The notes under the pieces: generated by a model
Database searches by the model: none
What the model saw: only the letters and a program-made list of their open reading frames with translations
What the model was told of the DNA's origin: nothing
Position numbers and translations under genes: made by a program
Source of the DNA: Promethearchaeum syntrophicum
GTDB lineage: Archaea > Asgardarchaeota > Lokiarchaeia > Sigyniarchaeales > Promethearchaeaceae
DNA length: 32,000 nt
Assembly: GCF_008000775.2 (NCBI RefSeq)
Contig: NZ_CP042905.2
Location: 2,340,001 to 2,372,000, forward strand
Reading direction: 5' to 3'
Shown here: piece by piece, positions 1 to 10,832 of the stretch
How positions within the stretch are numbered: position 1 is the first letter of the stretch
How the letters are laid out: each line of letters begins with the position of its first letter

Positions 1-645
1 TGTTCTTTGAAAAAATGAATACCTATCTTTTAATTCTTGCTCGGTTAATTCTTTCTTTTTTGCAATTTTCTCTTGTTCATCATTCAGCCGTAAATGTTTT
101 TCCCATTCTTCCCCGGGTATTTTTACAGTAAAACGAATTAACGAATCAATATAATTTTCAAGATCTTTTAAGATCTCTTCAGGTTCCTTCAATAATATTA
201 AACCAGTGTAGTTCTCTATCTTTTTGGAGATAAATTCTGCCATTTTATGAAATGAATTGAATAAATGAACTTCAGAATTCTTAACGGTATATGTTGGCGT
301 ATATTCATAAAAAATAAGATCTTCATAGTTAGTAACAAATCCGATTTTACAATTCAGTTCCTTACAATATTTCTTTAGTTGTAACTCGTCTTGTTCTAAA
401 TTGCCCTTTCCTTTAATTTTTGTTTCAATTATTGCTGAAACCGCGTCTTTATTATCCCAAACTATCCTATTTTTGTCTAGCTCAATTTGGATCAGTTCAG
501 TTTTGAATATAACAATATCTTCCTGAAAATGTTTTTTTTGAAATATTAACTCTTGAAAGACTCTAAATTGAATGCCTAATCTACTTTTCAAGAAATCTAT
601 TAGCTCAGGGCGGTCTGTATGTTCTGACATTTTCAGATTTGGCAT
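1..645 (-). CDS. Partial CDS (N-terminus in window, continues past the left edge): restriction-endonuclease-like PD-(D/E)xK protein resembling the HsdR_N / type I-IIG restriction enzyme N-terminal domain
   Basis: I checked the frame triplet by triplet and it is open from 657 down to 1. ATG is at 645 (alternative at 630). It is missing from the ORF track because it has no stop in the window. The translation contains ...AVSAIIETKIKGKGNLEQDELQLKKYCKELNCKIGFVTNYEDLIFYEY. This fits the ExK ... Q..Y ... TN(G) pattern of HsdR_N-type nuclease-like domains. Confidence 0.45.
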   Translation of the reverse strand, partial: MPNLKMSEHTDRPELIDFLKSRLGIQFRVFQELIFQKKHFQEDIVIFKTELIQIELDKNRIVWDNKDAVSAIIETKIKGKGNLEQDELQLKKYCKELNCKIGFVTNYEDLIFYEYTPTYTVKNSEVHLFNSFHKMAEFISKKIENYTGLILLKEPEEILKDLENYIDSLIRFTVKIPGEEWEKHLRLNDEQEKIAKKKELTEQELKDRYSFFQRT

Positions 646-1114
646 GTTTTTAAACCACTATAATGAAGTTTTTTGTATAAATCAGAAGTAATTAATGAAT
701 CTTCTTTTTTAATACTTTAATTATCTCTTTGTTATCAATCTTTTCCAAAAAATCTTAAGTTTCATGATGTGAACTTTGGTTATCTATTAACTCGAGGTTA
801 TACCAAAGTAAACTATATTACTCAGTTAAAGAATGAAAACATTGAAATAGATAAATTAGAACTTTCAACTTTGTAATGACTAAAACCTAATCGCTAACCA
901 AATCATTATGTTATGACTCTCGAAAACCAAAATGATTGGAATTAAACCTATAGATCAGATTAATAATTAGATTCTAATATTCAAAAGTAAGTAATTAATT
1001 TATAATGACATTCTTTGAAGTTTTGACTGTAGTCGGGTTTTTATTGATTTAATTGGATTTATTTATTTAATTATCACTATTTTAAGAAAAACAAAGCAAA
1101 TTGAAGATAGAATC

Positions 1115-1439: not shown

Positions 1440-1919
1440 TCACCTTCCAACATCACGTGCGGCTTCTTCAATCCAAGATCCAATATTATATTTTCCCTTA
1501 TCATCAAACCAATCATAAATTGGAACATGATCTGATAAAGGTTGATTATAATCATCATAAACATATTCAAAAGGATTATTTCCCTTTGTATCCCTTTTTC
1601 TATATTTATTTCGCAATTTGTGGATATAAATGCCCAACAATGCATTATTTTTGAGATAACTTTGTTTAATTTCATATTTAATCCATCTTCTATAAGACGT
1701 TTCTTGCCCAATTAAAACTACGGTCACTGAAGTTCCATGAAGAGTTTGATTTATTAGTTTTTTTATTTCTTGATCATTAAAAGTAGGATGATTTTCTTCG
1801 ATCGAACCATCCCAAAAACCAGCAGCTTCTCTTGTTTCAGCATAGTACCAAGAACTTTTGATATATCTTGCTCTCCAAATATCTCTTTGATAATGAAAAC
1901 TAAAAAAAACTACCCTCAT
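1440..1919 (-). CDS. thsB: ThsB-like TIR-like domain protein (DUF1863 / ThsB_TIR family)
   Basis: The N-terminus MRVVFFSFHYQRDIWRARY... and the core TSVTVVLIGQETSYRRWIKYEIKQS...LLGIYIHKL match the hallmark FFSFHYQ.D and VLIG..T..RRW..YEI motifs of Thoeris ThsB proteins. The putative catalytic Glu is included. This rests on recalled family motifs; no search was run. Confidence 0.75.
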   Translation of the reverse strand: MRVVFFSFHYQRDIWRARYIKSSWYYAETREAAGFWDGSIEENHPTFNDQEIKKLINQTLHGTSVTVVLIGQETSYRRWIKYEIKQSYLKNNALLGIYIHKLRNKYRKRDTKGNNPFEYVYDDYNQPLSDHVPIYDWFDDKGKYNIGSWIEEAARDVGR

Positions 1920-2018
1920 AATGTTGAATCATTCCATTTTTTTGATTTTTTGTCTGTTTGATTTAGTTAATTTAAGTTAAAAAATCTAAAAGAAAATAAC
2001 AAATAATTAGTAATCCCA

Positions 2019-2468
2019 TTAAGTTAGATGAACAATCATAAATATTATGCTTATTACCTCGATTGGTAAATAGAAAAGACATTCTGTTGTGGAAAACATA
2101 ACTCCAAAAATATTCTTCACTTTTTGTTTATCTTCTAAGGACGACTGAATTTTTTTAGTATCCATATCAAAGAGATTCTTATTTAATTCTTCCCTATCAT
2201 TATTGAATAAATCCACTTTTTTTTCCCAAAGTTTGCGAAATAACCTTTCCTGTCTTAAATAATACGAATCTAATACCCAAAAAAATCCTATGATAATGAT
2301 TGCATTAAGAAAAAATACCCACTGCAAATTTGCTAAATTAAATGCAATTACTACTGAATATATAGTCAAGGACCAACCTTTGAGCATAAAGGAATTTTGT
2401 GCCATTCGTTTAATGATATCTTGAATCATCAAAAAGTATTTTCTCGCATTTTCATTATCTTGAATCAT
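2019..2468 (-). CDS. Small membrane protein (about 3 TM helices) between two TIR-like genes; candidate effector, function unknown
   Basis: 149-aa ORF with hydrophobic segments GWSLTIYSVVIAFNLA, WVFFLNAIIIIGFFWVL and CLFYLPIEVISIIFMIVHL. It has an amphipathic N-terminal helix and an LDSYYLRQERLFRKLW motif after TM2. It shares the strand of both flanking TIR-like genes. Confidence 0.55.
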   Translation of the reverse strand: MIQDNENARKYFLMIQDIIKRMAQNSFMLKGWSLTIYSVVIAFNLANLQWVFFLNAIIIIGFFWVLDSYYLRQERLFRKLWEKKVDLFNNDREELNKNLFDMDTKKIQSSLEDKQKVKNIFGVMFSTTECLFYLPIEVISIIFMIVHLT

Positions 2469-2551
2469 TTTGTTTTCTCATCTCTACACAAATTTTATTT
2501 TATAAAAAAGATATGATTAATTAATTTTAAATTAATCCATATAACTACCTT

Positions 2552-3034
2552 CTATTCTTCAAAAATATCTTCAATTTCTTGTGCAATATTTGATGTATTC
2601 CAATCTAATAAAAGTAGTTCTCGTTTTATGAATAAATTTGGACCACCACCGGAAGTATTTGGGATTCTTACTCCAATAATTGGAATTTGTTTTGATGTGG
2701 CAACATCCATTTCGTAATCGACATAAGTGCTATTATGTGAATCATTCCCAATTAGACATATCATTAAATCACTCTCAATGATTTTTTCTTTAATATAATT
2801 TTTAACAGCTTGTTCCCCTTTTGCTCTAACGTCGTTTCGAGAAGAAATCGGAATTCCTCGTAATTCACTATTTGGATTTTGAAGTAATCCTTCAAATCCC
2901 TCCCGATAATCACGTTCAGTTTCTCTATAACTAATAAAAATTTTAATATTTTCCATCTCCTTTCTATTTCTAAAATCTTGTTTGAAATTATACATTTCTG
3001 ATATAAAAATATGCTTATTTATTAGAATTGACAT
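2552..3034 (-). CDS. Second TIR-like (DUF1863-type) domain protein
   Basis: Motifs are IKIFISYRE..., ...ESDLMICLIGNDSHNSTYVDYEMDVA...IPIIGVRIP and ...LLLDWN. This is a beta1 FISY motif, an LIG strand followed by a conserved Glu, and a PIIGV strand. The true start may be the internal ATG at 2956 (MENIKIFISY). Confidence 0.65.
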   Translation of the reverse strand: MSILINKHIFISEMYNFKQDFRNRKEMENIKIFISYRETERDYREGFEGLLQNPNSELRGIPISSRNDVRAKGEQAVKNYIKEKIIESDLMICLIGNDSHNSTYVDYEMDVATSKQIPIIGVRIPNTSGGGPNLFIKRELLLLDWNTSNIAQEIEDIFEE

Positions 3035-3146
3035 ATATAAATTTTCTAGTTGTTAGTTAGAAATCCTTCAAAACCCGGTGTTTGAACAATATTCTGAGAT
3101 TTTTAATTGGAATAATAAAATTTTATTATTCAAAACTAACCTTTTG

Positions 3147-4076
3147 TTACTTTTTTCTTGTTTTTGATGATCTTTTGCGTTTTGAGGGTTTATTTTGAGT
3201 AGTTTTATTTGAATTTTTTTTAATATTTTTTGAATTAGTAGACTTTGATTTCTTATTAGTAATAATCTTTGTTTTAAAACGAGATGATTTTTTTATTGAT
3301 TTTGATGATCTTTTGTTGTTTGAGGGTTTTTTTTGTCTAGATTTATTTGAACTTTTCTTAATATTCTTTGATTTACTAGATTTTGATTTCTTGTTTTCAA
3401 TATTCTTTGTTTTCGAAGGAGATGATTTTATTCTTGATTTTGATGATCTTTTTTTGTTTGAGGGTTTTTTTTGTCTAGATTTATTTGAACTTTTCTTAAT
3501 ATTCTTTGATTTTCTAGATTTTGATTTCTTGTTTTCAATATTCTTTGTTTTCGAAGGAGATGATTTTATTCTTGATTTTGATGATTTTCGACCTAATTTT
3601 AATCCTTTCTTATTCAAATCTTTAATTCCTTGTTTAAATCCTGTTTCTAAATTTTCTTTTGGTTTTAAATGTACTTCAGTCTTTTTTTTATAATTTTTTT
3701 CTGAAATGTTTCTGTTTGGAGAATTTCGAGCTCCTTTTTCAAAAATTTCAATTATCGGTTTTTGTTGTCTTATGGCTTTTCTGATTTCTCTTTTAGCCCC
3801 TTCGTGTCTTTTTTCTCCTGTTTTTGATGAGGGAGGAACGATTCTTACCACAACATCAGCATCCTTTACCATTTGTTTTTCTCGTTCATTTGTCTCTGTA
3901 GGACTAGTTTTTTCTCCCTTTTTCCATTTTTTCTGATCATGAATTGTCTTATATTTTGAATCTTTGTCTAGCCTTTCAGAAAATTTATGGGCTTTAGTTG
4001 TATGGCCAGGAGTTTTATTATCGTGAGCAACCATTATTTTTAATGGTTTTTTTTTAGATTTCTTCTTTTTTGCCAT
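3147..4076 (-). CDS. Bipartite protein: N-terminal TIR-like/flavodoxin-like domain plus a ~190-aa Lys/Ser-rich polycationic repeat tail
   Basis: The ORF track gives 3147..4088 with a TTG start; the ATG at 4076 gives MAKKKKSKKKPLKIMVAHD. The N-domain pattern is KIMVAHD ... DADVVVRIVPP...GAKREIRKAIRQQKPIIEIF, which is strand / strand+Glu / PII strand as in the two neighbouring TIR-like proteins. The C-terminal half is 46-aa K/S/N-rich repeats. Confidence 0.6.
   Translation of the reverse strand: MAKKKKSKKKPLKIMVAHDNKTPGHTTKAHKFSERLDKDSKYKTIHDQKKWKKGEKTSPTETNEREKQMVKDADVVVRIVPPSSKTGEKRHEGAKREIRKAIRQQKPIIEIFEKGARNSPNRNISEKNYKKKTEVHLKPKENLETGFKQGIKDLNKKGLKLGRKSSKSRIKSSPSKTKNIENKKSKSRKSKNIKKSSNKSRQKKPSNKKRSSKSRIKSSPSKTKNIENKKSKSSKSKNIKKSSNKSRQKKPSNNKRSSKSIKKSSRFKTKIITNKKSKSTNSKNIKKNSNKTTQNKPSKRKRSSKTRKK
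3150..3590. repeat. Coding tandem repeat, 138-bp unit, about 3 copies (two near-identical, one diverged)
   Basis: The protein unit KSRIKSSPSKTKNIENKKSKS(R/S)KSKNIKKSSNKSRQKKPSN(K/N)KRSS occurs twice. A diverged third copy reads KSIKKSSRFKTKIITNKKSKSTNSKNIKK.... The landmark gtctag recurs at 3335 and 3473, 138 bp apart. Confidence 0.85.
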
Positions 4077-4211
4077 ATTTATCAACAATTGATACCTAAT
4101 TTAATTGATTTAAAGACATATATAAACTACAAGACGACATTAAATAACTAACATTCTTTGTTATGTTAATTTATTTACCATTTCCACTGAATTAACAGGA
4201 TAAAAAAAAAA

Positions 4212-4733
4212 TCACTGATTTTCTAATCTTTTTAATCGCTCATGGAAAACCTTCAAAATTAAAGTTTTGTTCAAATGTCGATTTAATTGTCTACTATGTT
4301 CTCTAAATTCTTCGTTTACTTCTTTAAATTCATTTTCGACAATTGAAATTAGATGGTTAGTGTCATATTCTTTAATTTCTCGATCTTCTCTTATATTTTT
4401 AATATCGTGGTCTGGAAATTCTTTTCCACATTCACAAATATAATAATCAAAATTTCTTGGATATACTACTTCAAAAGCATTATTTTTACAACAATGTGGA
4501 CATTCTCTTCTTTTTGCTTGACTAATTAAATTTGATTTTTCAAGTAATTCTTCCCATTTCTCCTTTGGAGATCTTCTCATAATTTCTGTGAAAAATCTGC
4601 TACAACCTGGATTGAAGCATTTGTAATAATGAGAACCATCAGAAGAACTAGTACTCCTGCCTATCATAAATATTTCGATTGCTGATTGTTTATCGCAATA
4701 TATACATTGAATTTTATTAATCATAGTTATCAT
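4212..4733 (-). CDS. Hypothetical double zinc-ribbon protein with a helical C-terminus
   Basis: 173-aa ORF. Cys pairs are CIYC...CFNPGC and CPHCC...CEC, followed by a charged helical tail. Confidence 0.5.
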   Translation of the reverse strand: MITMINKIQCIYCDKQSAIEIFMIGRSTSSSDGSHYYKCFNPGCSRFFTEIMRRSPKEKWEELLEKSNLISQAKRRECPHCCKNNAFEVVYPRNFDYYICECGKEFPDHDIKNIREDREIKEYDTNHLISIVENEFKEVNEEFREHSRQLNRHLNKTLILKVFHERLKRLENQ

Positions 4734-4912: not shown

Positions 4913-6040
4913 TTAATTTGTAAGTAGTTGGTTTAGATATTCTGTGATCGTTTTAATGGATAATTCATGATAAAAATCATGGATTTCCTGAATAGAATTT
5001 GGTTGTTTACCTTGAATTTCAAAAAGCTTAAGTATTTCGGAAAGTGAAAAATTATGCAAGAGATATCCTTTGATAATATATTTTATAGTAATCAAAACAC
5101 TTTTTTTGGTATCTTCTCCATATTGATCTAAGTGAGAATGATTTAATTTCAGATTTACATTTCCATCTTCATCAAAATCAAGATAATCGTATCCGGATTT
5201 GACTATTGGATAATGAGGGGTGATTTGGACGAGATTGTGGAACGCATGGGAAATGAAATATTTATACATTTGGTCCTTGATCTTTTTTGGACCAGTTTGG
5301 GCTGTTTTTGCTTCTCCTCCAATATAACAATTTTGATCTTTCACTGAAAATTTTTGCTGGGTTTTGGTCTGTGGTAAATGCCTTAACAAGGCTAATCGAA
5401 ATAAAAAACCTCCATCTATCTCAAAATTTGCTTTATTCAGTTGGTTTAGCAAGGATGGAACATAAAAAGCGCCAAAATCTGGGATTCCTTCAATGTTAGT
5501 ATAGGGTAGAACAATTTCATTTTCAGTTAAATAATTATGTTTATGATATAAGGTCGAAGTAATATATTGTAAGAATCCTTCATTGTTTCCTCCAAATGTA
5601 GGTGCCATCTCGATAAAAATACAGTTTTTGTATCCCAATTTTGATTCTTCTACTTTATCAGAAAAAATTTTTAATAATTTATTTGAAGGTCCATTTTCGG
5701 TACGTGAATATTGGTAAGGAATAATAAATTTGTCTCCTTTCAGGAGAAATGGATATTTTTTTAGTTGATCAGTAAACGGAAGATTGGAGATTTTTGGATA
5801 AATATTAAATAGATTATATTTTAAGTCTGGGATAAAACATGTTTTATAATCTATTAGATAATATGTATGTCCAGATAATCCATAAGAACCCATCACTAAT
5901 TCTAAGGCTGCAAGTGCATTAGTTTTCAATACTCCAAAAGGAAATATTTGCTGTAATTCATTGATAATATGGAAACGATCATCTTTTGCAAGAATTCGGA
6001 ATATCATATCAGCAGTTAATTCATTTATCATCTTTTTCAA
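4913..6040 (-). CDS. Hypothetical protein, possible PD-(D/E)xK-type nuclease (weak)
   Basis: 375-aa ORF with no overlapping competitor of similar length. It contains IPDFGAFYV ... YIGGEAKT (PD ... ExK), but the spacing is long and the family is not recognised. Confidence 0.5.
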   Translation of the reverse strand: MKKMINELTADMIFRILAKDDRFHIINELQQIFPFGVLKTNALAALELVMGSYGLSGHTYYLIDYKTCFIPDLKYNLFNIYPKISNLPFTDQLKKYPFLLKGDKFIIPYQYSRTENGPSNKLLKIFSDKVEESKLGYKNCIFIEMAPTFGGNNEGFLQYITSTLYHKHNYLTENEIVLPYTNIEGIPDFGAFYVPSLLNQLNKANFEIDGGFLFRLALLRHLPQTKTQQKFSVKDQNCYIGGEAKTAQTGPKKIKDQMYKYFISHAFHNLVQITPHYPIVKSGYDYLDFDEDGNVNLKLNHSHLDQYGEDTKKSVLITIKYIIKGYLLHNFSLSEILKLFEIQGKQPNSIQEIHDFYHELSIKTITEYLNQLLTN

Positions 6041-6223
6041 TTATATTATATCAATAAAGATTTATTATTCTTTTTTAATATATATTTAAAATTTATCCCG
6101 CTATATTCTCATAAAGGGAATTTCTCATCTTGTAGAATCTCGATCTAACAATAAATCAGAAATATAAAAAAAATGAAGATATAAAGAAGTAAAAAAAAAA
6201 TTAAATTAATAAATTATTCATTA

Positions 6224-6510
6224 TTAGAATTTAATTTCGCCCATCTTGGCGCGCTCGTCAACTAAAGCTTTAACAACCTCAGGATTTGCCAATGTCTTAA
6301 CATCACCAATATCACCCATGGTCACACTTGCCTTCAAAACACGTCTCACAATCTTTCCTGAGCGGGTCTTTGGTAAAGCATCGGTAAACATGATAATTTC
6401 GGGTTTGACTGTTGGTCCGGCAACATTACGAACTTATTTGACAATTTCACCTTTCTATTCTTCAGTTTTCTCCACAACTTGCATAAGAGTGATATATGCG
6501 AAAATTGTTG
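6224..6510 (-). pseudogene. Truncated, stop-containing 3' fragment of an acetyl-CoA synthetase gene (last ~95 codons)
   Basis: It aligns without gaps to 22531..22817, the intact acs 3' end, at a constant offset of 16307. It encodes ...VRNVAGPTVKPEIIMFTDALPKTRSGKIVRRVLKA...NPEVVKALVDERAKMGEIKF*. In-frame stops lie at 6434-6436 (TAA) and 6455-6457 (TAG). Similarity ends abruptly near 6511. Confidence 0.85.
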
Positions 6511-8462: not shown

Positions 8463-10610
8463 ATGAAAATCAAACATATTAAAATACAAGGGTATCGATC
8501 TTTAGACAATTTTTCAATAAATCTTTCTGATTATACTGTTATTGTAGGTAAAAACAATGCAGGAAAGTCAAATCTACTTTCTGCGATTAATTCTTTTTAT
8601 CATCCAAAATTATTAACAATAAACGACGCAACTCGCAATGGATTAGGAGATATAATTCGTAGTGAAATTTCAATAAAACTAACCTTTGACAAATTGTTGG
8701 ATTCAGAAAAGCAAAACAATCAGAAATATGTAGAAAACAATCAAATAATTGTTGAATTAGTTGCAAAAGTGAGGGATGAAGAAGATAAAATTGTAGAAAA
8801 ATTGAAACCTGAGCATCATGGATACATAAAGAAATATGATTATGAATTTAGTGATTCAATTGAGTCAAAGATAAGAGAATTAGTTTGTTCTGAAACTGTT
8901 CCATCACAAGATGTTGTTAGGGATGTTCCAATTCTCAATATTATTGCACAAGTTGAAGCTCCGAGTGGTAGAATAACTAAAGAAAGATGGAATAATATCT
9001 TAACGAAATTTATTGATCAAGTACCAGGTATCCGAAAAATTCCAAAGATAGTAAGGGATGATGATCATAAATATCAAGGATTTATCGGCTCTAATTCGGC
9101 CGAAAACAGTGGGAGATGTCTTTTTATTCCTGCTATATTAAATCCATCAGAAAACTTAGATGAAACCAAACAAAATAGTCAAATTTATCGATTAGTATCA
9201 TCTTTGATGAATAAATCTATACCCCAACCATTAGAAGATGAATTTTCAAATTTTGTGGAAAAATTAAATAACGAAAGGGATTCAACTCGCCAAGATCTCA
9301 TTGACCGTTTTGATGAAGAATTAAGGGTCTGGGATACGAAAATTGATATTACTTTAGATAAACCCTCACTTGAGAATGCCTTACCTGTAGCTTTCAAAAT
9401 TAACTTCAACGATGGTGTTCCTACTGATTTAAGACATAAGGGCACAGGTTTACAGAGATATATATTCTTTAAATTCTTGAAAATTTATAATGAATTAATG
9501 CAAGATTCGGAAATTTCTTTAATACTCTTATTTGAAGAACCAGAAGCTCATCTGCATCCCCACTTCCAAAGAGAAATAGCTGAAATCATTGAGGGTTTAA
9601 AATCATCTCTTATCCATCATTATCAAATCATTCTTACAACACATTCACCTCAATTTATCGATGTAACTCGGATGGAGAATCTCTATCGTTTTAGTCGTCT
9701 TGATAATCATTGCACTGATTCCGAAAATTGCTTCTTAGATTTATCTAATATTAATGACAAATTAAAAACTGCATATTTCTTTAATCCTCATGTTCGAGAA
9801 GTTTTTTTTGCTGACAAGGTCATATTGGTTGAAGGAATTAGCGAAATTCAATTCTTTGAATATCTAAAAAATCAAGGTGTAATTTCATTCTCAAATTGTT
9901 CGATTATTGGAATGGGAGGTAAGCAAAATTATCGTTATTTCATACCTATTTTAAATGCTGCAAAAATTCCTTATTGCATTGTTGTAGATGAAGATCCCTA
10001 TTTTGAACCGCATTACAAAATAAAAAATGAAAATTCTTTAAGACTAAAAAGGAGGGATTATTTGATTACGAAAGATATTCTAAACAAAATAGATTCTAAC
10101 TTAGGAAAATTGTGTGTAATTTCCCCCGATTTTGATACCTTGATTGGTACTTCTAAGAATCAACTATCAAGTAGAGGAAAACATATTGCTACAAACTACA
10201 GATTAAAAAAAATATATACATCTGCTTTACCAGATTTTTCAAGTAAGAAAAATGAGTTGGAAACAATAGCTAAAAAAATACTAAATTTTGAGACGATTTC
10301 AGATCAATCAATTCAATTTCCAGGAGAGAATCTTTGGACTCCAGTTGATCAAAATGCTGTGTCTTTAACTGAAATTAATGAAAAATATATCGTAACGAAA
10401 TTAATTGGAGCTATAAAGAATTGGAAAAATTCAATTAAAACATTTACTCCTATTCAAGCGAAAAATTTTCTGATTGAATTGCGTAAACAAACACAAACGC
10501 ATTTAGCTGATCTAAGCAAAAAATTCAGAAAACCTTTGGATGCAGTCTCAGAAAAACATAAATCCACGCAAACTAAATTAGGTAATTTTATTCGTAAAAA
10601 AGATATCTAA
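8463..10610 (+). CDS. OLD-family nuclease: N-terminal ABC/AAA_15-type ATPase fused to a Toprim domain, with a long helical C-terminal extension
   Basis: Motifs are Walker A VIVGKNNAGKSNLLSAI, Walker B LILLFEEPEAHLHP, H-loop IILTTHSP, Toprim Glu KVILVEGISEIQFF and DxD-type IVVDEDP. Confidence 0.85.
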   Translation: MKIKHIKIQGYRSLDNFSINLSDYTVIVGKNNAGKSNLLSAINSFYHPKLLTINDATRNGLGDIIRSEISIKLTFDKLLDSEKQNNQKYVENNQIIVELVAKVRDEEDKIVEKLKPEHHGYIKKYDYEFSDSIESKIRELVCSETVPSQDVVRDVPILNIIAQVEAPSGRITKERWNNILTKFIDQVPGIRKIPKIVRDDDHKYQGFIGSNSAENSGRCLFIPAILNPSENLDETKQNSQIYRLVSSLMNKSIPQPLEDEFSNFVEKLNNERDSTRQDLIDRFDEELRVWDTKIDITLDKPSLENALPVAFKINFNDGVPTDLRHKGTGLQRYIFFKFLKIYNELMQDSEISLILLFEEPEAHLHPHFQREIAEIIEGLKSSLIHHYQIILTTHSPQFIDVTRMENLYRFSRLDNHCTDSENCFLDLSNINDKLKTAYFFNPHVREVFFADKVILVEGISEIQFFEYLKNQGVISFSNCSIIGMGGKQNYRYFIPILNAAKIPYCIVVDEDPYFEPHYKIKNENSLRLKRRDYLITKDILNKIDSNLGKLCVISPDFDTLIGTSKNQLSSRGKHIATNYRLKKIYTSALPDFSSKKNELETIAKKILNFETISDQSIQFPGENLWTPVDQNAVSLTEINEKYIVTKLIGAIKNWKNSIKTFTPIQAKNFLIELRKQTQTHLADLSKKFRKPLDAVSEKHKSTQTKLGNFIRKKDI

Positions 10611-10640
10611 TAAGCCATTCGATTCTGGCAAATTAAATGG

Positions 10641-10750
10641 TGGAAACTAAAAAGAAAACTTAAGAAAACTTAAGAAAACTTAAGAAAACTTAAGAAAACT
10701 TAAGAAAACTTAAGAAAACTTAAGAAAACTTAAGAAAACTAGAAACTTAG
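10641..10750. repeat. 10-bp tandem repeat TAAGAAAACT, 8 perfect plus about 3 degenerate copies (phased A-tracts)
   Basis: Read directly. Perfect units run 10661..10740, with degenerate units on both sides. The array starts 31 nt after the OLD gene stop. Confidence 0.9.
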
Positions 10751-10804
10751 AGATGCATAGATTAACTTGTTATCTCATGAAAAAAATTGAAATTAATTAC
10801 ATTT

Positions 10805-10832
10805 GTTATTAGAATTTCATTACCCCGAGCTT
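10805..10832 (-). pseudogene. 28-nt remnant of the acs 3' terminus (last 7 codons, stop and flank)
   Basis: gttattagaatttcattaccccgagctt versus the intact gttattagaatttaatttcaccgagctt at 22527..22554 is 25/28 identical. It reads KLGVMKF* versus KLGEIKF*. About 35 nt of A/T-rich flank to the left also resembles the flank left of 6224. Confidence 0.65.

Follow-up and report, generated by a model that had tools for sequence, protein, structure and literature searches.

TIR-based immune signalling occurs in bacteria, plants and animals alike, and among known prokaryotes the Asgard archaea stand closest to eukaryotes. A December 2025 preprint by Yirmiya et al. widened Thoeris, a TIR-based defence, to eleven verified types according to its text, among them type V, which consists of the TIR protein ThsB and of ThsF, a protein with three transmembrane (TM) segments annotated as DUF2270 (bioRxiv 10.64898/2025.12.03.692087). 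The same text reports that type V defends in B. subtilis, that in the type V system of B. thuringiensis infection leads the TIR protein to make 3' cyclic ADP-ribose (3'cADPR), that this product is made by the TIR protein alone in an infection-dependent manner and is toxic to system-bearing cells, and that ThsF is modelled by AlphaFold3 as a ring with basic inter-protomer pockets (bioRxiv 10.64898/2025.12.03.692087). Here, we describe a cluster of four genes, named g1 to g4, at positions 1440-4088 of a 32,000-nucleotide stretch (the window) from the cultured Asgard archaeon Promethearchaeum syntrophicum MK-D1 (NZ_CP042905.2, positions 2,340,001 to 2,372,000). Judged by sequence comparison, the cluster is very probably a type V Thoeris-like system in which TIR proteins act on a ThsF-family membrane protein, with extra components.

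The four open reading frames (ORFs) are intact, lie on the minus strand and follow one another in the transcription order g4-g3-g2-g1. The g4 gene occupies 4076..3147, with an alternative upstream TTG start at 4088, and is followed by g3 (3034..2552), which encodes a 160-aa "short-type" ThsB TIR protein with a Glu at E108. The g2 gene (2468..2019) encodes a 149-aa predicted effector of the ThsF family with three TM segments, 100% identical to DSAG12_02662 of strain MK-D1, and g1 (1919..1440) encodes a 159-aa "long" ThsB-type TIR protein with a Glu at E83. A preliminary description of the window, made from the sequence, had proposed four co-oriented genes at 1440-4088, and the ORFs were confirmed at those coordinates. 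The genes are separated by 112 bp (g4/g3), 83 bp (g3/g2) and 99 bp (g2/g1), and the local G+C content is 26-28%. The predicted effector gene is flanked on both sides by TIR genes of the same strand, with g1 99 bp downstream and g3 83 bp upstream of g2. Pfam models of SIR2, SLOG and Macro domains had no match on any window ORF of at least 100 aa, in agreement with the preliminary description, and no ThsA-type protein was present in the 4.2 kb past the left end of the window, as read on a Logan contig of the same organism. The canonical type I/II partner of ThsB, a SIR2-SLOG ThsA or a Macro-TM effector, is not found beside ThsB here.

The g1 and g3 products are the two clear TIR proteins of the cluster. 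The preliminary description had called 1440..1919 a strong ThsB-like TIR protein and had named the lack of a TIR match as the result that would speak against it; g1 matches Pfam ThsB_TIR at 7.1e-23 with 81 bits (cut-off 21.2), as well as the PADLOC models ThsB (8e-53) and PDC-M50B (4e-59). Residues 3-141 of g1 align to the B. cereus ThsB structures 6LHY/9B7D (3e-28), and within the motif stretch FFSFHY...RRWIKYEI, "RRWIKYEI" lies opposite "RRWVRYEI" of B. cereus ThsB. This alignment puts E83 at the position of the RYEI Glu of ThsB, the catalytic residue of that protein. The second TIR-like protein of the preliminary description, g3, passes both ThsB_TIR (2e-12) and TIR_2 (2.6e-6), matches the TIR domain of PDB entry 8FZ9 (1.6e-4), and carries the motif IFISYR...CLIGNDSHNSTYVDYEM with E108 as its Glu. 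In an alignment (A5) of 16 TIRs from the window locus and related loci, the sole invariant acidic column is this catalytic-position Glu, g3 E108 included. The aligned TIRs split into a "long" g1-like and a "short" g3-like subtype, the Glu being invariant in both, and the short subtype was found again in related loci L089, L091, L092, L096 and L097. Additionally, g1 is 42% identical to TIR 2517691597, which Table S1 of the preprint tags as "DUF2270 - Type V".

The membrane protein g2 has the three-TM layout of a type V effector. It was correctly described beforehand as a 149-aa three-TM protein: hydrophobic segments lie at about 32-48, 45-71 and 128-149, and the AlphaFold2 (AF2) model is all-helical, with a mean predicted local distance difference test score (pLDDT) of 89.8 and a predicted TM-score (pTM) of 0.81. 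In the model, an N-terminal helix leads into TM1, a hairpin connects to TM2, TM2 runs on as a long cytosolic helix, and the C-terminus forms a TM helix; segments and model together agree with the three membrane-spanning helices expected of a type V effector. The motif FWxLDSYYLRQERLFRKL is conserved after TM2, and the invariant residues gather in two cytosolic helices (R21, F27, K30, W32 and the FW.LD.Y.L..E...R motif). In the modelled structure, the conserved R21, K30, R72, R75, R78 and K79 of these helices are compatible with an oligomer with basic pockets. No relative of g2 was found in Pfam, in NCBIfam or by fold in the PDB, and it matches the PADLOC model PDC-M50A at 5.6e-43. Its family comprises 5819 clusters (50% identity) at E<=1e-3. 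Type VII Thoeris, with the SLATT effector ThsH, and CBASS and Pycsar offer a possible analogy, as they too place a small multi-TM, signal-gated, membrane-disrupting effector beside a synthase. In contrast to the SLATT effectors of type VII and CBASS, g2 belongs to a separate family, SLATT families being absent among the g2 matches and among the 25 most frequent of the 39 families listed for 49 aligned relatives at E<=5.

Relatives of g2 frequently adjoin ThsB-type TIR genes. We collected 80 genome loci at species level, each with a relative of g2; they span many phyla of bacteria and archaea, with the Asgard metagenome-assembled genome Borrarchaeum among the sources. The loci were picked by one conserved peptide pattern and scanned with a narrower alignment (A2), the first alignment (A1) being too diverse. 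A g2-family ORF was callable in 78 of them, with ORFs in the fetched loci called crudely as the longest frame from the first start codon. A ThsB-type TIR ORF lies within 150 bp on the same strand in 38 of the 78 loci, in 33 of these immediately downstream as in the window, and somewhere in the locus in 42/78. Among 35 neighbours of g2 relatives in the remaining loci, TIR_2 was matched in seven, Nuc_deoxyri_tr2 in two and SEFIR in one. A 378-aa metagenomic member of the family (P0261) has an SLOG cluster-2 domain (LD_cluster2, 1.7e-15) fused to a ThsF-like module at 246-375. This fusion to a SLOG sensor fits g2 as a signal-gated effector module, and TIR adjacency together with the fusion reads, at the sequence level, as the signature of such a module.

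Homologous loci connect the g2 family to the TIR proteins of type V. Entry 2509886574 of Table S1 of the preprint, tagged "DUF2270 - Type V", has the same sequence (100% identity) as a TIR protein encoded on plasmid pNATPE01 of Natrinema pellirubrum, and a g2 homologue begins where that TIR ends (34% identity, 2e-21 pairwise and 2.7e-38 to the family profile). Only 2 bp separate the gene for a B. thuringiensis TIR, which has 75% identity to the validated type V ThsB of Bacillus sp. 1NLA3E, from the g2-family gene (P0305) that follows it, and plasmids of Priestia and Terribacillus show the same TIR-then-g2-family arrangement. In a tblastn search of plasmids with the ThsB of B. thuringiensis DAR 81934, the two closest homologues adjoin SIR2 or Macro genes, not ThsF, and more distant homologues do abut g2 homologues. 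From these sequence relationships, g2 is filed under ThsF as the authors of the preprint define it, and not under Pfam PF10028. The cluster thus contains a TIR ThsB adjoining an effector that homologue neighbourhoods place in the ThsF family.

The haloarchaeal locus on pNATPE01 (NC_019967.1 173300-175685) holds a TIR gene, a ThsF homologue, a gene for a HIT-domain protein and a second TIR gene on the opposite strand, which combines a type V effector with a type XI-like effector; the gene table of the plasmid has no entry for the ThsF homologue. Among plasmids of Escherichia and Klebsiella, conjugative for the most part, about 76 encode a homologue of ThsF and about 79 a relative of the validated type V ThsB; whether the two genes adjoin was checked in one Klebsiella plasmid (NZ_AP021974.1), where the ThsF homologue lies beside a type V-like TIR gene and is split by an IS3 element into pieces at 3270-3539 and 5013-5297.

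Compared with described systems, the locus shares with type V a ThsB TIR gene beside a gene for a small three-TM protein of g2's family and the absence of a SIR2, SLOG or Macro effector. Loci with ThsF and two ThsB genes also occur in other genomes, as the preprint presents them (bioRxiv 10.64898/2025.12.03.692087). The locus differs in its host, an Asgard archaeon as against Bacillus for the validated systems, and in combining two distinct ThsB subtypes with the additional protein g4, which has a TIR/nucleoside 2-deoxyribosyltransferase (NDT) fold and a polybasic tail. With types I and II, it has in common the closeness of g1 to the type I ThsB of B. cereus and the presumed logic of a TIR-made signal acting on a killing effector, whereas the effector here would be a 149-aa membrane protein without a recognisable sensor domain. 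The adjacent genes g2 and g1 also correspond to the A and B genes of PDC-M50 in PADLOC-DB v2, and a literature search did not find the name "PDC-M50". PDC-M50 is a two-gene candidate without a described mechanism, and unlike the present cluster it does not include g3 and g4. The preliminary description rightly singled out the small membrane protein as the effector partner in place of a canonical ThsA but presumed the arrangement undescribed; PADLOC has listed the pairing of a TIR protein with a small membrane protein as a candidate since 2023, and the December 2025 preprint verified it experimentally as a Thoeris type. An architecture of four genes that includes the g4 family, and the gene associations reported below, are not described in the preprint as available, and its text and tables on type V do not describe a g4-like protein.

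By family membership, g1 and g3 would sense infection and turn NAD+ into a cyclic-ADP-ribose-type signal. In the only type V system that has been resolved biochemically, this signal is 3'cADPR. The signal would bind the conserved Arg/Lys-rich cytosolic helices of g2, which could then oligomerise, breach the membrane and halt the growth of the infected cell.

The remaining protein of the cluster, g4, consists of two parts. Its N-terminal domain (3582..4076, minus strand, about 165 aa) has a divergent TIR/NDT fold, modelled by AF2 (pLDDT 85.9) as a five-stranded beta-alpha Rossmann-like fold. The top PDB matches in Foldseek are MilB (3.9e-5, TM-score 0.57-0.62), BcmB, nucleoside 2-deoxyribosyltransferases and DNPH1, and behind them in the list stand the TIR domains of SARM1, ThsB and SPARTA, with overall E values of 4e-5 to 2e-3; the enzymes ahead of the TIR domains lie at 4e-5 to 1e-3, with TM-scores of about 0.6. 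Many polar residues are invariant in the domain (H18, N20, T26, K28, H30, D47, S58, R78, E97, K100, E110, Y129). At the sequence level, g4 reaches E=0.15 and 12.9 bits against ThsB_TIR (cut-off 21.2), in register, and four of 35 relatives match this model, at E>=0.015. No Pfam family matches this domain in any of the 34 homologues, and no member of the g4 family matches Nuc_deoxyrib_tr at threshold, one member reaching E=0.07. The preliminary description had assigned g4 to the TIR-like proteins by a common strand/Glu/strand layout: the shared layout is real at the level of the modelled fold, and TIR family membership is not seen at the level of sequence. In its predicted structure, g4 resembles the nucleotide N-glycosidases MilB, NDT and DNPH1 at least as much as TIR domains. 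It shares with MilB/BcmB, NDT and DNPH1 a strand/Glu-helix/strand core and differs from MilB, NDT and DNPH1 in lacking sequence-level membership, in forming its own family of about 34 clusters and in its polybasic repeat tail. The Glu at the catalytic position, said in the preliminary description to be kept in all three proteins, is present in g1 (E83) and g3 (E108); E97 of g4 is invariant in its family, and its equivalence to them is taken up below.

The g4 family is small and confined in its known range. A search of 5.8 billion proteins returned only 34 relatives of the N-terminal domain, 157-267 aa long; where a source is named, it is Helarchaeota or Promethearchaeota (Asgard), and the viral contigs searched contained none. 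The family is strongly conserved and bears tails rich in K/P/T/S at the N- or C-terminus. In g4, the C-terminal polybasic tail (3147..3581, minus strand, about 143 aa) is composed of 42% K+R, 26% S and 1.4% D+E and is encoded by a 138-bp tandem repeat (Tandem Repeats Finder: 3151-3585, period 138, 3.2 copies, 90% matches). Such a tail probably binds nucleic acid or another polyanion. Assignment of g4 to the SLOG proteins was rejected, the lone PF18180 match (in P0289) lying in an N-terminal extension that other members lack.

Genes of the g4 family recur with the other components of the cluster. Loci L087-L092 and L096 are built, in shuffled orders, from one set of parts: relatives of g4, TIRs of the short and long subtypes, and ThsF. 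The contig closest to the window (82-88% identity) carries g4-g3-g2 and then a convergent gene at the place of g1. Relatives of g4 were also located on 35 metagenome contigs, short for the most part, of which 18 have a TIR gene, 16 ThsF and 12 both. A further partner, here called X, is a conserved protein that measures about 350 aa and is rich in Cys at its N-terminus (CPF..LC..C....CCL). Its gene, found at L110:418-1467, L128:1745-2851, L125:3324-4442, L090:3868-4995, L092:3946-4998 and elsewhere, precedes the g4 relative upstream by 0-6 bp in 13 loci and by 51-135 bp in another two, and it is absent from the window. X has no sequence relative in Pfam or the PDB, and an E=0.056 match to Guanylate_cyc was discarded, as no stretch of the protein supported it. 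In two loci (L128:1745-3870 and L125:3324-5449), the genes for X, a g4 homologue and a ThsF homologue abut, and no TIR was detected on these contigs of 5.8-6.6 kb.

These associations bear on the role of g4. Because L125 and L128 carry X-g4-ThsF without a TIR gene, we lean towards g4 as a signal source or sensor over g4 as an effector. An additional ThsB-like sensor or signal generator that feeds ThsF is the role that we favour for g4, and we give it a little less than an even chance. A bolder form of this idea, which we regard as doubtful, is that the g4 family is an unrecognised branch of the TIR/N-ribosyltransferase fold that can replace canonical ThsB and feed ThsF, often together with X, its tail sensing or docking viral nucleic acid. 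On that equally doubtful view, the system of MK-D1 would be a hybrid, its canonical ThsBs and a new synthase or sensor converging on one membrane effector.

The effector reading of g4 stays alive because of its N-glycosidase-like fold. It would make the locus a two-effector Thoeris in which g4 is a second, signal-activated nucleotide N-glycosidase of the MilB, CMP-hydrolase or DNPH1 kind beside g2, a tentative proposal that is the main alternative for g4 and that we hold to be rather unlikely. The best modelled folds for the N-terminal domain, namely those of the CMP N-glycosidase MilB, BcmB, NDT and DNPH1, all precede TIR domains. By sequence inspection and the AF2 model, the strand - S.TG...E helix - strand layout of g4 matches the catalytic arrangement of DNPH1 and NDT. 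No member of the g4 family matches Nuc_deoxyrib_tr at threshold, which counts against such an enzyme, and on L125 and L128, where no TIR gene was detected, the signal for a two-effector system would have to come from g4 or X. The text of the preprint describes the type VIII effector ThsI as a CMP hydrolase with a tetratricopeptide repeat (TPR) sensor domain, and reports CMP-hydrolase effectors and an occasional operon in which ThsI accompanies a membrane effector (bioRxiv 10.64898/2025.12.03.692087). In contrast to ThsI, g4 has no TPR domain, and it has no other recognisable ligand-sensor domain.

Several results weigh against the assignment of the cluster to type V Thoeris with g4 as a TIR-like component. 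The best fold matches of g4 are N-glycosidases, ahead of TIRs, and the hhalign alignment that pairs g4 E97 with g1 E83 has a probability of only 9%. The intergenic gaps of 83-112 bp bear on operon structure. About a third of the g2-family loci have no TIR-like neighbour. The assignment of g2 to ThsF is an indirect one, made through the identity of neighbouring proteins. PF10028 (DUF2270; gathering cut-off 25 bits) does not match g2 at E<=5 and gives weak matches in eight of 49 g2-family members, at E 0.0022-0.16 and all below the cut-off; in P0019 (14.4 bits) and P0305 (12 bits), the match is in register with profile positions 23-91. The sequence similarity of the g2 family to PF10028 appears at most remote. 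Because the PF10028 match is below its cut-off, the label "DUF2270" leans on the authors' annotation and on neighbourhood. Finally, according to the preprint, 3'cADPR elicited no response in one of the two type V systems that were validated (bioRxiv 10.64898/2025.12.03.692087), so that it is only a candidate for the signal of the present system.

It is very unlikely that the four genes are mere neighbours in a defence island and not one system, whether as a stray solo TIR (g1), an unrelated pair (g4 and g3) or a decayed or inactive cluster. The gaps leave room for separate promoters, a convergent gene stands where g1 would be in the closest contig, X, the usual gene before g4 homologues, is missing here, and the two genes upstream of g4 (g5 and g6, described below) have no homologues in related loci. 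Against such a dispersal, the preprint treats several ThsB genes per Thoeris locus as normal (bioRxiv 10.64898/2025.12.03.692087). The four ORFs are intact and co-oriented, and the set of g4 family, short TIR, long TIR and ThsF recurs in shuffled order in many independent contigs. Bacterial TIR domains that have this catalytic Glu can also act simply as NADases. Least probable of all is the view that the TIR proteins serve as effectors by depleting NAD+, in the manner of CBASS, Pycsar, SPARTA and some Avs, and that g2 is a membrane sensor or anchor and not the killer. Against it, the preprint, which voices such a caveat for unverified TIR configurations, reports 3'cADPR from the TIR alone and system-dependent 3'cADPR toxicity in a ThsF-type system (bioRxiv 10.64898/2025.12.03.692087). 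In addition, g1 is closest to the signal-producing ThsB of B. cereus, and the g2 module that is fused to a ligand-sensing SLOG domain suits a role as signal receiver and effector.

A complete predicted TIR-to-membrane-effector set in a cultured Asgard strain is a concrete case, open to cloning, in which the TIR signals of this lineage can be studied, and the host raises the interest of the cluster somewhat. Thoeris goes unmentioned in the main text of a 2024 survey of defence systems in Asgard archaea. Both g4 and X, often its partner in related contigs, are uncharacterised and occur with ThsF again and again, and if g4 does make or sense a nucleotide signal, the folds known to drive Thoeris-type signalling would increase in number. 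If the cluster is only a type V Thoeris with spare parts, its value is modest, namely an annotation for four hypothetical proteins. Clusters with an "orphan ThsB", of which the present one is a case, are worth checking against the new Thoeris types.

The setting of the cluster is a defence island. At the left edge, 1..657 (minus strand) encodes the N-terminus of a 959-aa N6_Mtase/MmeI/Eco57I-type enzyme that extends past the window. The preliminary description had listed an HsdR_N-like gene there; the nuclease-like HSDR_N_2 domain (9.5e-6) is present, but it is only the N-terminus of a methyltransferase fusion. The full gene, with N6_Mtase matches and co-oriented with the Thoeris genes, is found on the Logan contig of the same organism (L098:2716-5595), and the enzyme is probably a type IIG restriction-modification fusion to judge from its domains. 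Upstream of g4 and co-oriented with it are g5 (4212-4733, minus strand), whose 173-aa product has two zinc-ribbon motifs of the Cys4 type, and g6 (4913-6040, minus strand), whose product is 375 aa long. Neither has a family match, and the lack of homologues in any related locus makes both doubtful as system components. Membership of g6 in the X family was also rejected, its BLASTP matches being at E=0.068 and 0.77 and the X profile giving no match at E<=10. On the right, an OLD-family ATPase-TOPRIM nuclease (8463..10610, plus strand) matches AAA_15 (1.2e-38), OLD-like_TOPRIM (2.6e-15) and PADLOC Old (2e-57), as the preliminary description had it.

No Rfam family and no tRNA was found in the window. 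The 3' end of an acetyl-CoA synthetase (acs) gene occurs three times in it. The full gene lies at 22531..24558 on the minus strand, with the 3'-end stretch at 22498-22797; one copy at 6191-6490 (300 nt, 83% identity) holds a 55-aa fragment ORF (6224..6391), and a short copy of 32 nt lies at 10801-10832. The threefold presence of the acs 3' end suggests two mobile islands in tandem at this site. The first putative island, of about 4.4 kb, would contain the OLD nuclease, and the second, of about 11.7 kb, an IS110 transposase, a major facilitator superfamily (MFS) transporter and a Rce1-like protease. Just downstream of the OLD gene, 10632-10751 is a perfect 10-bp tandem repeat of AAGAAAACTT in about 10 copies, which ends about 50 bp before the short acs 3'-end copy.

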